From IMG/VR virus record IMGVR_UViG_2923350032_000001, positions 1-64,000 of that record: 64,000 bases of DNA; one strand, given 5' to 3'. The notes under the pieces are model-generated. The model was not told where the DNA came from and ran no database searches. It saw only the letters and a list, made by a program, of their open reading frames with translations. A program made the position numbers and the translations under genes. Source of the stretch: a virus. Lineage: Duplodnaviria; Heunggongvirae; Uroviricota; Caudoviricetes. Shown here piece after piece: positions 5,290 through 31,465 of the stretch; positions within the stretch are counted from its first letter, which is position 1, and every line of letters starts with the position of its first letter.

Positions 5290-5511
5290 ATGCAATCCAT
5301 TAACTTCCGTACCGCGCGCGGCAACCTTTCTGAAGTGCTCAACAATGTTGAGGCCGGGGAAGAGGTTGAAATCACCCGCAGAGGCCGTGAGCCAGCAGTA
5401 ATTGTCAGCAAGGCTACTTTCGAAGCCTACAAAAAAGCGGCGCTGGATGCTGAATTTGCATCCCTGTTTGACACCCTGGACTCCACCAACAAGGAACTGG
5501 TTAACCGATAA
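5290..5511 (+). CDS. phd: Phd antitoxin (prevent host death)
   Basis: 73-aa product [49 protein letters not shown]... matches remembered P1 Phd; start taken at the second in-frame ATG. Confidence 0.93.
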
Positions 5512-5891
5512 TGAGGCATATATCACCGGAAGAACTTATTGCGCTTCATGATGCGAATATAAACCGCTACGGCGGCCTGCCGGGAATGTCTGATCCGGGT
5601 AGGGCAGAGGCCATTATCGGGAGAGTTCAGGCCAGAGTTGCCTACGAAGAGATCACCGACCTTTTCGAAGTCTCCGCCACCTACCTGGTGGCTACAGCGA
5701 GAGGGCATATATTCAATGATGCCAATAAGCGTACCGCGCTAAACAGTGCGCTGTTATTTCTACGCCGTAACGGGGTGCAGGTATTTGATTCACCTGAACT
5801 GGCAGACCTTACCGTAGGGGCTGCGACCGGAGAGATATCTGTATCTTCTGTCGCCGCCACGTTACGTAGATTGTATGGTTCTGCGGAGTAG
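5511..5891 (+). CDS. doc: Doc toxin (death on curing), Fic-fold kinase
   Basis: 126-aa ORF overlapping the phd stop; sequence matches remembered P1 Doc. Confidence 0.93.
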
Positions 5892-26993: not shown

Positions 26994-27839
26994 ATGCTGG
27001 CTAAAGTCACTTTCCTGAGCTGTATAACGATGAGCGATTTTACTTTTTCTGGCTATGAATTGGCCTGCTTTGTAACACACTCCGGTCTATCCCGTAGCGC
27101 CGGGCATATCCTGTCGCAATGTGCAAATCTCGCGGCAACAACCAGTGAATACTTCATTCACAAGCCTCACCGCCTGATCGCGGCAGAAACTGGTTATAGT
27201 CAATCAACCGTCGTTCGTGCATTCCGTGAAGCTGTAAACAAAGGAATCCTGTCTGTAGAGATTGTTATCGGCGATCACCGTGAACGTCGCGCTAACCTGT
27301 ACCGGTTTACACCATCCTTTTTGGCCTTCGCACAACAAGCCAAAAATGCGCTGATTGAAAGCAAATTAAAGATCTCTTCAGCGGCAACTAAGGTTAAAGC
27401 TGTTCTCGCTAAGACATTAGCTTTATTTAATTTTTTATCCACACCCCCATGTCAAAATGATACCCCCTCCCCCTGTCAGGATGACGTGGCAATAAAGAAT
27501 AAGAAGTCACAAGTTAAAAAAACAAAAAGATCAGTTTCCGGCGGTGCCGGAACGATCAGACTCAAAAAATTGACTTCATGGATCGCTGAGACAAAAGCAA
27601 AGGCTGACAATCTGCGGTTATCCAAAAAACGCGCTCAAAAACATGAGTTCAAGCAGAAAGTAGAGGCGGCAGCGCGGAAATATGCTTACCTGAAGAACAA
27701 GCGTTCTCCTGATATTGGCGGGGTATCAAACTTCGATAATCTGCCGCATTGCATGACGGTAAACGAAGCTCTTAATGCGGTTTTAGCCAAAAATAAAGAT
27801 AACGAACAATGGGGTATACCGGCAGGATTCAGAGGGTGA
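26994..27839 (+). CDS. repL: RepL, lytic replicon initiator (oriL expected inside)
   Basis: 281-aa ORF in the P1 kilA-repL arrangement. Confidence 0.85.
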   Translation: MLAKVTFLSCITMSDFTFSGYELACFVTHSGLSRSAGHILSQCANLAATTSEYFIHKPHRLIAAETGYSQSTVVRAFREAVNKGILSVEIVIGDHRERRANLYRFTPSFLAFAQQAKNALIESKLKISSAATKVKAVLAKTLALFNFLSTPPCQNDTPSPCQDDVAIKNKKSQVKKTKRSVSGGAGTIRLKKLTSWIAETKAKADNLRLSKKRAQKHEFKQKVEAAARKYAYLKNKRSPDIGGVSNFDNLPHCMTVNEALNAVLAKNKDNEQWGIPAGFRG

Positions 27840-28135
27840 TAGATTGCTCTAATCTGGAGTCACCTGGCGTTTTCAGTTTGAGGTCGGAGATGCAATCTGA
27901 TTTTTTACAGTTAGCGATCGCTTTTGCAGGATATGTTTGTATTGGCTTCTGTGTATACATGATCAGCCGAAAAATGCTTGTCGATATCGACCGCAAAGAA
28001 CAAGCAGAGGAGATCTTAGTATGGATTTTCTTTGGCGCGGTCTGGCCATTAGGGATCATGTTTGCTGCAACATTTCTTCTGATGTGGATATTCACCCTTC
28101 CAGGTGATTTCTATAGAAAAAAAGCCAGACATTGA
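27809..28135 (+). CDS. Small membrane protein (two TM helices)
   Basis: 108-aa ORF with hydrophobic segments. Confidence 0.4.
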   Translation: MGYTGRIQRVIDCSNLESPGVFSLRSEMQSDFLQLAIAFAGYVCIGFCVYMISRKMLVDIDRKEQAEEILVWIFFGAVWPLGIMFAATFLLMWIFTLPGDFYRKKARH

Positions 28136-28199
28136 TACAATCGTTGCGGGTGCTTGAGGCTATCTGCTTCAGGCATTACCCGAAAAGCAGATAGAAGAA

Positions 28200-28300
28200 A
28201 GCCCCAGATAACATTACGCGTCCTGCAAGACGCTTAACATTAATCTGAGGCCATATCTATGCTTAGCATACGTAGATTAGCCTCTTACCGACCAAAAGGT
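28200..28300 (-). ncRNA. sok: Expected Sok-type antisense RNA region
   Basis: Inferred from standard hok/mok/sok architecture only. Confidence 0.3.
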
Positions 28301-28468
28301 CAAGGAGAAGCAGGCTATGAAGCAGCAAAAAGCGATGTTAATCGCTCTGATCGTCATCTGTTTAACCGTCATTGTGACGGCACTGGTAACGAGGAAAGAC
28401 CTCTGCGAGGTACGAATCCGAACCGGCCAGACGGAGGTCACTGTCTTCACAGCCTACGAATCTGAAAG
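28259..28468 (+). CDS. mok: Mok-like overlapping reading frame of the hok locus
   Basis: 68-aa ORF overlapping hok in another frame. Confidence 0.5.
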
Positions 28469-28472
28469 GTAA
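28317..28472 (+). CDS. hok: Hok/Gef-family type I membrane toxin
   Basis: 51 codons MKQQKAMLIALIVICLTVIVTALVTRKDLCEVRIRTGQTEVTVFTAYESER; below the ORF-track size cutoff; closest to HokD/RelF-type sequences from memory. Confidence 0.85.
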   Translation: MKQQKAMLIALIVICLTVIVTALVTRKDLCEVRIRTGQTEVTVFTAYESER

Positions 28473-28492
28473 GAGACCTGGCGGGGAGAGAT

Positions 28493-29835
28493 CCCATAAG
28501 CGCTAACTTAAGGGTTGAACCATCTGAAGAATGCGACGCCTCGGTGCCTCGTTAAGACGATGCCTCGCGTTCTTCAATTGCGTTTTGTAGGCTGTCAGGG
28601 ATACTGTCCCACGAATGGCCACCTGTAAGCTCCAGATGACCATTTTTGTTATTCTCCACAACGAGTTAGTTCTTCTTTTCGGATCCGGCACTTCTGGGGG
28701 GGAAATCCAGCGATGGCTGGATTATGTCGTCAATTAAAAATGCGGCGAGTAGATTAGCAAATATCCACGCTTTCGCGAGTTCAGGTTCCTTTGCACGCAA
28801 AGCATCCAGGTGCAGCAAACTTTTGAGCCGCTTAAAAGCCAGTTCAATTTGCCATCGCAGACGGTAACAATCAGCCACTTGCTCTGCTGAATATTCATCT
28901 TCCGGTAATGATGTTAGCAATAGCACATGGCCCGCTGCTTCCAGCGTTTCCGCCTGAACTACTCGTCCTTTTCGACGATTCTCGCTGAGCAGTCGGGTTT
29001 TACTGATTAATGCTTTTTCGGGAGGAAGTGATACGGCAATGAGACGTGCCGGAAAGGGAGCTCCGGCTTTTTTATTACCTGAATTGCCTATCATTACAGT
29101 GGTTTCACCGTTCTTACCGCAATCCAGCCCGCGCAGAAAACCCATCATGTCAAAGCGCATTCCTTCTGCAGTTAACCAGCGCAATCCTCGCCAGTGAACC
29201 CGGACGATATAATCAGCTTCTCCAAAAGCAAGTGAGCGGATACATTCGGGACGCGAACCGAATCCCCGGTCAGCAATGCGTATCTCGTCTGCCGTTTGCG
29301 CAAATCGGTCCAGCCGTTCAGCGTCTCTGCTGTCGGTTAGCTCAAAATCAGTGAACTGACAGGTATGAGGATCATATCCCATATGTAGTCGCCATTCAGC
29401 GCTGCCGCCCCCGGGCGCACTGATTGCTGTTCCATCGACAAGACGCAATCTCTTTCCGCTTGTACAACCCGTAACTGCGGCGCGTACAGCAAGTGTTTGT
29501 GCGGCAAGTATGCCAAACCAGTCGGCGGCATTCCGCAGCCGCTTCAGGAGAGCCACGTCAGATAATGTTGCAACGTCATGGAGCTGAGCCCATGCAGTGA
29601 CTTCACGTAATGACATCCCCCCGGGGCCGTAAGCCAGCCCCAGACGTAGCAGAGTTGCAGCATCACGAATTTCGCGGCGGCGGGTTAGAGCCCCGGCATT
29701 ACGTGCCGAAGTATCCAGTTCTTCGGGCTTACCAATATGGGCCAGAATTGCTGACCAGTTATCGTGAGAGTAATTCATCGGCACGTTAAATCATATCAGG
29801 CGTAATACCACAACCCTTAAGTTAGCGCTTATGGG
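28493..29835 (-). mobile_element. IS186 (IS4 family)
   Basis: Terminal inverted repeats CCCATAAGCGCTAACTTAAGGGTTG at both ends; GC-rich GGGG...CCCC target context. Confidence 0.85.
28666..29784 (-). CDS. IS186 transposase
   Basis: 372-aa ORF MPMNYSHDNWSAILAHIGKPEELDTSARNAG... Confidence 0.85.
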   Translation of the reverse strand: MPMNYSHDNWSAILAHIGKPEELDTSARNAGALTRRREIRDAATLLRLGLAYGPGGMSLREVTAWAQLHDVATLSDVALLKRLRNAADWFGILAAQTLAVRAAVTGCTSGKRLRLVDGTAISAPGGGSAEWRLHMGYDPHTCQFTDFELTDSRDAERLDRFAQTADEIRIADRGFGSRPECIRSLAFGEADYIVRVHWRGLRWLTAEGMRFDMMGFLRGLDCGKNGETTVMIGNSGNKKAGAPFPARLIAVSLPPEKALISKTRLLSENRRKGRVVQAETLEAAGHVLLLTSLPEDEYSAEQVADCYRLRWQIELAFKRLKSLLHLDALRAKEPELAKAWIFANLLAAFLIDDIIQPSLDFPPRSAGSEKKN

Positions 29836-30140
29836 AGTGATCCCCGCCACTCTTCGTGTGTCTGGTAACCTCAATGCACCCTTTTCTCCCCAATAGTGTA
29901 AAACACAATGAAGTAGAAGGAGTTATTTCACATCATGCAAAGATTCAGACCATATCTCCCAATAGCCTTCGCGACATGATGACTTTCAGAAATATCTAGC
30001 TGTTAACAAAATTCCATACTTGCTTTGCTAATACCACCTAGATTATATATGGAAAAATACACCTAAAACTTAAACAAATTATATCCACAACAAACATCCA
30101 TCTATTAGGATTAAAATTAATTTAATAATAAATAATACAA

Positions 30141-30175: not shown

Positions 30176-31168
30176 TTATTGGAATAACTTACTGATTACA
30201 TTAAAAACATTAAGGGCGTTACTTGCCACACTAGACATCTTGGCTGAATTTTTTTCGATTGAGTCAAGAACACTTTCGACTTCCGATAAAGTTCTTCTGC
30301 TATCTGCATCTTTTCCTGAGTCTATCGCATCTTTAATTGCAGATATAGCAGACTCTAAATTCTCCTTAAACTCACCTGTCGTCTCATCCTTCAAGAGAAG
30401 TTCTAACTCTTGTTTAAGTTTTTCCAATGATGCTCTTTTCTCATCAGTTTTACTAATCTTCCCTGAATAACTGACACAAACACATTCTCTTTTATTGCAG
30501 ACAGGACAACCATTTAGATAATAACTTTCAAACGCCTCGCCAAGATCATCATCTTTAAAAATAATCCCCCATAAAGAAAACAACCAAGCATATATATCAG
30601 CACACTCTTCATGAAGATTTTCTTTGTTGTAATTTTTATCTTCAATTGATTTAGCATAAGCCTCTTGCAACTCACCCAACTCTTCGAATAACCTGGATGA
30701 ATGATAAAACCCACCAAAAGTAGACCAAATGGTTCTATTCGACGGATAGATGTCATTAATCATTCGTGGCGCATAAGGCGGAAATTGCATAGGTTTAATA
30801 GCGTTATATTTATTGAAAAGCTCATCTTTAATTCCTTTTGCGCTTCTTATTTTCTCTGGCTTTCTGTGTGTTTGAGAACAGGAACAAGGCGCCCCTAAGC
30901 AATAAGGACAGCAACTAGGAAATTTTTTATAAAATGCTTCCTGTGGTTGTATTTCAAGTTTATCACAGATTGCAAAAAGCCAAGACAATGCTTCTATATA
31001 GGTATTTTTTAATAATTCTTTATCCTGATTACCATCACGAATAAACTCACGTGTTAAATAAGCTGTTTTCCTTGTCAGATAAGAGTACATATACTCAAAT
31101 GATTTTTCTTCATTTTTTTTGCTGTAAATACCTACAATAATATTGCTCATATCATTGATACGTAACAT
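30176..31168 (-). CDS. Tandem MazG-like NTP-pyrophosphohydrolase-fold protein with two Cys4 zinc ribbons and a C-terminal coiled coil
   Basis: 331 aa from the ATG with AAGAGGA RBS (MLRINDMSN...); motifs FEELGELQEA...EECADIYAWLFSLWGII, CCPYCLGAPCSC, CPVCNKRECVC; low-GC gene. Confidence 0.55.
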   Translation of the reverse strand: MLRINDMSNIIVGIYSKKNEEKSFEYMYSYLTRKTAYLTREFIRDGNQDKELLKNTYIEALSWLFAICDKLEIQPQEAFYKKFPSCCPYCLGAPCSCSQTHRKPEKIRSAKGIKDELFNKYNAIKPMQFPPYAPRMINDIYPSNRTIWSTFGGFYHSSRLFEELGELQEAYAKSIEDKNYNKENLHEECADIYAWLFSLWGIIFKDDDLGEAFESYYLNGCPVCNKRECVCVSYSGKISKTDEKRASLEKLKQELELLLKDETTGEFKENLESAISAIKDAIDSGKDADSRRTLSEVESVLDSIEKNSAKMSSVASNALNVFNVISKLFQ

Positions 31169-31465
31169 GACATTCCTCTTAAATAAGCCAATACTTCCTA
31201 GAACCATATATGCTTCGACAAAGATTAACGGACATCTTGCCTTCACAAACTTTGACGCTACATAAATTTAACCATGTGCATACTAAATATTTAAGGTAGA
31301 AAAGTATAGGAGTATTTATTAATAGGTAACTGTTAGTTTACACTCACTTCATACCAGAGTATTTACAAGATGTTATTTTACTCTATTCGCTAGGCGGTGG
31401 AATGCGGTTGTATCAAGGGGAGGTAAACCTCCCCCGAAGAAGATTAAAAGTACAAGGGATAACAC

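Follow-up and report, generated by a model that had tools for sequence, protein, structure and literature searches.

IS186 in the 3' stem-loop of a hok/mok/sok locus on a probable P1-like phage-plasmid

The hok/mok/sok locus considered here lies in a stretch of viral DNA of 64,000 nucleotides (positions 1 to 64,000 of the IMG/VR record IMGVR_UViG_2923350032_000001), which is referred to below as the window and which, judged from its sequence, is a multidrug-resistance P1-like (IncY-type) phage-plasmid. Downstream of the toxin gene, the locus contains a complete copy of the insertion sequence IS186, which splits the GC-rich stem-loop of the hok mRNA and moves the fold-back element fbi away from hok. 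We consider it quite likely that this is a module of such a phage-plasmid struck by IS186, for which a loss of post-segregational killing is to be expected. The configuration is not new, being a further instance, on a phage-plasmid, of the disruption known at hokC (gef) and hokE of Escherichia coli K-12, and the current understanding of hok/sok is unchanged by it.

The locus and the insertion site

The toxin gene hok occupies 28317-28472 on the plus strand and encodes 51 amino acids in 51 codons. Its product matches the Pfam family HOK_GEF (PF01848) with E=2.4e-22 and 78.7 bits against a cutoff of 22, and the identical coding sequence is annotated in many plasmids, where PGAP names it 'HokD'. 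The mok-like reading frame of 68 codons (28259-28465, plus strand) is out of frame with hok and overlaps almost all of it. It has a GAGG Shine-Dalgarno sequence at 28247-28250, and its start codon lies within the Sok target and aligns to the annotated start of K-12 mokC. An earlier note, made from the letters of the window, had described a 51-codon Hok/Gef toxin with an overlapping mok frame, and both are borne out.

The leader of the hok mRNA, which is the Sok target, extends over 28148-28322 (plus strand), as delimited by Rfam, by alignment to the K-12 hokC leader and by folding. It matches the covariance model RF01794 end to end (positions 1-157 of 157; 114.9 bits, E=1.3e-26; gathering score 59). 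At its start lies tac (GGGTGCTTGAGG, 28148-28159), with a local partner at about 28166-28181. A putative hok/mok promoter was found by consensus scan at 28114-28141 on the same strand, consisting of a -35 TAGAAA, a 16-nt spacer and a TG-extended -10 TACAAT; 7 nt lie between its end and the predicted +1 (28148), a placement that fits the start of the Rfam leader. On the minus strand, a putative Sok antisense RNA would cover about 28191-28267, its extent being taken from the alignment to the annotated K-12 sokC, and is predicted to form a long hairpin (-32.9 kcal/mol) followed by GGGGCUUUCUU. The putative sok promoter (28274-28303, minus strand) comprises a -35 TTGACC (reverse complement of 28298-28303), an 18-nt spacer and a -10 TAATCT (reverse complement of 28274-28279). 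Its identification was by inspection and homology; the -35 is conserved with hokC, and the promoter scores below the threshold of the consensus scan. Compared with K-12 hokC and the Rfam consensus, the Sok-target hairpin is extended by 18 nt at 28218-28235 (ACGCGTCCTGCAAGACGC), and the predicted Sok stem-loop is correspondingly longer.

IS186, a member of the IS4 family that PGAP names as an IS421 isoform, fills 28495-29833 on the minus strand. It is complete at 1339 bp, identical to K-12 IS186A at 1339 of 1339 positions, and bounded by 23-bp terminal inverted repeats CATAAGCGCTAACTTAAGGGTTG at 28495-28517 and 29811-29833. Its transposase gene insL (28666-29778, minus strand) runs antisense to hok and matches Pfam DDE_Tnp_1 (PF01609, E=1.6e-26); PGAP names the product an IS421-family transposase. 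Exactly 22 nt separate the end of the hok stop codon (28472) from the first base of IS186 (28495), so the distance of about 22 bp given in the earlier note was correct to the base. The window holds no second copy of IS186. An assembly artefact was ruled out by the identical junctions present in many complete assemblies. Within IS186, at 29048-29077 on the plus strand and antisense to the transposase gene, there is a strong terminator-like hairpin with a T-run, which would end read-through from hok about 600 nt past the stop codon.

The target can be read from uninterrupted alleles (locus L001 and 44 loci in IMG/VR), which run TAAGAGACCT GGCGGGG AGAGAT CCCCGCC ACTCTTCGTGTGTCAGGTAT CCTCAATGCACCC TTT, with GGCGGGGAGAGATCCCCGCC as the empty-site sequence into which IS186 has gone. 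The target is a perfect GC-rich stem-loop, which begins 8 nt past the hok stop and contains a G4-N6-C4 palindrome. The target pattern of IS186 is (G)>=4 N3-6 (C)>=4, and only three other GGGG-N3-6-CCCC sites are present in the 64-kb window. That a consensus target exists is stated in the title of SaiSree et al. 2001. In the intact alleles the stem-loop is followed by fbi, the complement of the mRNA 5' end (GGGUGCUUGAGG), 47 nt past the hok stop.

By comparison with these empty sites, the left remnant of the stem-loop in the window (28480-28494, plus strand) retains the 5' arm GGCGGGG, the loop AGAGAT and the first CC of the 3' arm. The remnant includes the left 10-bp copy of the target duplication (GGAGAGATCC, 28485-28494), and the right copy (GGAGTGATCC, 29834-29843), which differs from it at one position, stands beyond IS186. 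The 3' arm of the stem-loop, CCCCGCC, has been displaced to 29842-29848, and fbi (CCTCAATGCACCC), which is complementary to tac with a duplex energy of -21.6 kcal/mol, to 29869-29881, all on the plus strand. The span of 28200-28520 assigned to the locus in the earlier note is thus incomplete, as the promoter and +1 lie at 28114-28148 and the displaced 3' parts at 29834-29881. The note had also held that the 3' end of the hok mRNA was replaced by IS sequence, a view it would have given up had the fold-back element lain wholly upstream of 28493. Since fbi lies beyond IS186, that interpretation is supported, with the refinement that the 3' part has been displaced by 1,349 bp and not deleted.

Folding of the interrupted mRNA and the outcome for the module

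The earlier note had proposed folding the mRNA with and without the IS junction, and the two conditions differ. In minimum free energy (MFE) folds starting at +1, the intact A and T alleles (named after the base described in the next section) pair nt 1-12 with nt 373-385, i.e., tac with fbi, at P=0.99. The window transcript was folded with twelve different 3' ends inside IS186; with ten of them tac pairs locally with nt 19-34, and this local hairpin is the fold predicted for the processed hok mRNA. For the other two (near 28791-28800), tac pairs with an IS-internal stretch at nt ~626-651. The tac-fbi pairing within one roughly 400-nt mRNA is therefore present in the empty-site alleles and absent from the window transcript. 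The stable GC stem-loop that forms the 3' end of the processed mRNA is likewise lost, its remnant folding at -10.0 kcal/mol against -19.3 for the intact hairpin.

The arrangement that is broken here is widely shared. A fbi-type complement follows the GC hairpin 47-53 nt past the stop in all seven diverse hok loci compared, which were the two P1-like haplotypes, K-12 hokC with its IS removed, Klebsiella, Enterobacter and IncI2 plasmids, and flm of F. Among them tac and fbi covary from GGGUGC/GCACCC to GGCGC/GCGCC (U-A to C-G), and the other differences are G.U wobbles. An Rfam search among diverged plasmid Hok genes found no leader for L062, L063, L066, L067 and L068, which were left out of this comparison. 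A surrogate fbi inside IS186 was also sought. The best duplexes with tac, at 28531-28550 (a stretch hidden within a local hairpin of the IS) and at 28789, had energies of -17.9 and -15.3 kcal/mol, respectively, and so fell short of the -21.6 kcal/mol of the native element; such surrogates were no better than shuffled sequences (57/500). They pair with tac only if the transcript ends near 28791-28800, and the pairing is lost once the 3' end is moved, so that the candidate is unsupported.

The meaning of these losses can be approached through R1. In the R1 model, the open tac hairpin is the translatable, Sok-binding state and exposes the mok Shine-Dalgarno sequence (PMC9841398). In R1 mutagenesis, 19 of the 22 loss-of-function substitutions in the 3' untranslated region break one C-G pair of the terminal stem, and with this stem broken the translatable truncated hok mRNA is absent, which was attributed to 3'-to-5' exonucleases (PMC9841398). 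By analogy, the hairpin split by IS186 is the counterpart of the R1 3' stem-loop needed for an active hok mRNA. Effects on mRNA stability, translation and killing are accordingly described here on the model of the R1 and K-12 gef literature, while the anatomy, the insertion site, the place of fbi, the predicted folds and the recurrence come from the sequences themselves.

The following sequence of events is proposed. IS186 would have transposed into the G4-N6-C4 palindrome of the GC-rich stem-loop, making a 10-bp target duplication and splitting the structure by which the processed, translatable hok mRNA is normally protected at its 3' end. Shifted 1,349 bp farther from hok, fbi could no longer lock tac into the stable, inert full-length form. 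Transcripts starting at the hok promoter, which is intact, would enter IS186 antisense to the transposase, with their 5' end in the local tac hairpin, open and accessible to Sok, and without a strong 3' hairpin. No long-lived pool of latent hok mRNA would then form, and post-segregational killing would be lost, even as the toxin reading frame, mok, and the Sok gene and its promoter appear to remain intact. Since both elements that hok mRNA needs for its stability, in the latent and in the active form, are lost, a silent module without post-segregational killing is the most likely outcome. The earlier note had left it open whether the module was deregulated or inactivated. Inactivation is much the likelier of the two, because IS186 splits the stem-loop that, on the R1 evidence, is required for a translatable truncated mRNA.

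Several points weigh against this reading and in part favor a working module. The K-12 gef gene, with an equivalent insertion, is still transcribed, as an mRNA of about 644 nt that ends in the IS, and antisense-regulated; the IS186 copy that follows gef is believed to interfere with fbi and with the processing of the mRNA (PMC3562002). 'Inactive' therefore denotes loss of the post-segregational killing mechanism and not necessarily total silence. Additionally, the hok reading frames are intact and undecayed in all seven IS-occupied loci of IMG/VR, which fits a recent insertion or a retained function, and MFE folding is approximate for RNAs of 350-930 nt. It could be proposed on these grounds that the module still works under Sok control, its transcripts ending or being trimmed inside IS186 and an IS-internal or other structure replacing fbi and the 3' hairpin, and that it kills when Sok is lost, in post-segregational killing or abortive infection. 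The intact mok and promoters of occupied loci, the high frequency of the IS186 allele, and the predicted fold in which a 3' end near 28791-28800 lets tac pair with nt ~626-651 all agree with such a module. We nevertheless find it unlikely. The surrogate pairings are weak, resemble the shuffled controls and depend on the 3' end; single C-G breaks in the terminal stem abolish R1 hok toxicity, and here the whole 3' arm has been removed. Moreover, according to a Hok survey preprint, even uninterrupted chromosomal hokA, hokB and hokC gave no post-segregational killing and no response to rifampicin, and the original authors termed the chromosomal hok/Sok systems inactive.

Deregulation, in which the loss of fbi would leave a constitutively translatable mRNA with higher toxicity or a fitness cost, draws on the prediction that tac forms its open hairpin, by which the mok Shine-Dalgarno sequence becomes exposed in R1. 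We hold this to be highly improbable, as the open form is also the one that binds Sok, the putative Sok gene and promoter appear undamaged, and the 3' stem that protects the mRNA has been broken up. At least 194 PLSDB plasmids and 43 complete E. coli genomes, with diverse backbones, carry the allele, and a spread of this kind is incompatible with strong toxicity.

Recurrence, recombination and variation at the site

The insertion is common. Of the PLSDB plasmids that carry this hok, 160 show the junction of the window, 34 are occupied at the identical base by IS186 in the opposite orientation, and 249 are empty (a separate count gave 441 loci with this hok in total), so that IS186 occupies about 44% in raw counts, redundancy included. 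IMG/VR holds five loci with IS186 in the same orientation, two with the opposite one and 44 empty, and the opposite orientation at this plasmid locus is seen in L045, L051 and L058. The arrangement of the window occurs in 43 of 5,426 complete E. coli genomes; at the chromosomal hokC, the K-12-type junction is present in 819 genomes and the empty site in 3,814. The occupied plasmid loci have several upstream backgrounds and four Hok protein alleles, with all reading frames intact. It follows that about four in ten PLSDB plasmids carrying this hok, which are nearly all P1-like, have a 'hokD' that is best annotated as IS-disrupted and probably non-addictive, and its presence at disrupted loci is no sign of a functioning system for stability or defence. 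The IS186 state of K-12 hokC and hokE is likewise a recurrent, sequence-driven event and no laboratory oddity, the hok 3' hairpin being a target of IS186.

The two copies of the target duplication in the window differ in one base, being A on the left (28485-28494) and T on the right (29834-29843), and each base belongs to a distinct downstream haplotype. The 'A' haplotype continues with GAGAGATC and then a terminator hairpin; the 'T' haplotype continues with GAGTGATC and then a 1.55-kb segment with a MazG-like gene. The right side of the window is a complete T flank, the MazG-like cassette included, and its upstream region lacks the -312 single-nucleotide polymorphism (SNP) common to all six T-haplotype loci. 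An A-type left flank joined to a T-type right flank places a crossover between the duplication copies, i.e., inside IS186. The simplest account of the mismatch, judged from these flanks, is thus homologous recombination within IS186 between plasmids occupied as A/A and as T/T. Perfect duplications of both kinds exist, A/A in L016 and L044 and T/T in L030, and both alleles are also found as empty sites. A point mutation after insertion, with no recombination, would need to change a single base only, and by its title Sengstag et al. 1986 describes duplications of variable length made by IS186 at one target. Given that both alleles occur in empty and in perfectly duplicated sites, and that the complete T haplotype on the right meets a left flank without the -312 SNP, we judge a mere mutation to be quite unlikely. 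The perfect A/A, the perfect T/T and the opposite-orientation insertions amount to at least three independent events. Through recombination of this kind, a shared IS186 would be a portable homology for the exchange of downstream cargo between phage-plasmids, here the MazG-like cassette. The cassette lies in the segment 29894-31432, with its MazG-like reading frame (a PGAP name) at 30176-31246 on the minus strand, and replaces a terminator hairpin that the A haplotype has after fbi, so that the hok mRNAs of the T haplotype have no obvious terminator even without the IS.

The 3' arm of the hairpin varies at empty sites, as surveyed in the IMG/VR loci L005-L055. In the 40 full-length empty loci, this arm (nt 346-352; window 29842-29848) is polymorphic at 4 of 7 positions, as compared with 30 of 388 other mRNA positions (Fisher p=0.0013), and the 5' arm is invariant. 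The changes are all C-to-T, giving G.U pairs (18, 7, 3 and 1 loci), apart from one deletion of a single C. They cost only 2-3 kcal/mol of hairpin stability, yet they break the C-run. Intact CCCCGCC was found at all seven readable IS right junctions in IMG/VR and at 14 of the 44 empty sites (p=0.001, relatedness ignored). In PLSDB, no perfect match was found to a right junction with the commonest variant, CCTC, the top hits all having one mismatch. These counts are compatible with a need of IS186 for the C-run, and they might also reflect selection to escape from IS186 at the hok hairpin. A fuller proposal is that the terminal stem-loop of hok serves as a landing pad for IS186 and that plasmids escape through C-to-T changes which spare the RNA hairpin. 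We regard it as tentative and rather doubtful, since the C-to-T pattern could come from lineage structure or from strand-biased deamination or another mutational bias, and attenuation is listed as a possible cause besides. If the proposal were true, an RNA element would be evolving target-site immunity to a sequence-specific IS with its RNA function kept, and hok would still be worth protecting on P1-like plasmids. The population pattern of the hairpin is the only part of this work that might repay further study.

Related loci and the phage-plasmid context

The comparison with R1 and the chromosomal loci, which the earlier note had recommended, revealed a shared architecture and IS186 at the homologous position in K-12 hokC and hokE. 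The closest counterpart is K-12 hokC (gef)/mokC/sokC with IS186A. It has a homologous leader, tac, hok, GC hairpin and fbi, and carries an identical IS sequence at the equivalent base of the hairpin (GGCGGGGAGTGATCC|CATAAG...), likewise oriented and flanked by a 10-bp duplication. It differs from the window in being chromosomal, in having mokC in frame with hokC (the mok of the window is out of frame), in its perfect T/T duplication (A/T in the window) and in a Sok-target hairpin that is 18 nt shorter; its toxin differs at 9 residues and is 1 amino acid shorter than the Hok of the window. In K-12 hokE/sokE, IS186B likewise lies in the equivalent GC hairpin (TGCGGGGAGTAATCC|CATAAG...), about 21-22 nt past the stop; however, its orientation is opposite to that in the window and the toxin is more divergent.

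The hok/sok (parB) locus of R1 and flm of F share tac, ucb, mok, the Sok target, hok, the terminal GC stem-loop and fbi ~50 nt past the stop (PMC9841398). They differ in being intact and proven to mediate post-segregational killing, in a 5' end GGCGC that pairs with GCGCC, and in a hairpin, GGCGGGC...GCCCGCC, that has no run of four G or four C and therefore does not match the target pattern of IS186. A known recurrent, site-specific IS186 insertion that disrupts a promoter has a similar G-run/C-run target, the difference being that a promoter and not an mRNA 3' structure is hit. In K-12 hokA (L071, K-12 3720448-3722111), which an insertion sequence has disrupted as well, the element is IS150, and it occupies the mokA/sokA leader ahead of hokA and not the 3' hairpin. 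A position of IS150 22 bp downstream of hokA is contradicted by the MG1655 annotation, which places it in that leader. IS150 may likewise target hok leaders. On the IncF plasmid pRM9513 (L063), where no Rfam leader was found, an IS150 transposase gene ends about 130 bp upstream of the Hok gene. Additionally, an Enterobacter plasmid (L062) and a Citrobacter plasmid (L066) have the order relB-relE-hok, as in the K-12 relBEF (hokD) operon, and no hok leader is detectable by Rfam in either.

The assignment of the window to a P1-like phage-plasmid follows from near-identical records, which are E. coli plasmids of 90-135 kb, and from the IncY typing of L001. These records annotate repL directly upstream of hok, together with kilA, icd, repA/parAB, tail-fibre genes, a Cin-type recombinase and holin/lysis genes. 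A phd/doc pair was located by tblastn at 5290-5888, with 100% and 97.6% identity to the P1 proteins. By homology, phd/doc would be a second maintenance system besides hok, and parAB would also be there for maintenance. Positions 1-21300 hold, according to the best-matching plasmid records, a TnAs3-family Tn3-like transposase, a type I restriction-modification system (HsdR/HsdM) and the macrolide-resistance gene mrx(A), and are on this basis a resistance or accessory region within the phage-plasmid.

Searches with Pfam gave no match at E<=0.01 for mok, RepL, the MazG-like reading frame or a small reading frame between repL and the hok promoter. The latter (27809-28135) is hydrophobic and encodes 108 amino acids from its first ATG; in related records it is annotated as 81 amino acids. 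A terminator-like hairpin at 28092-28107 immediately precedes the hok -35.

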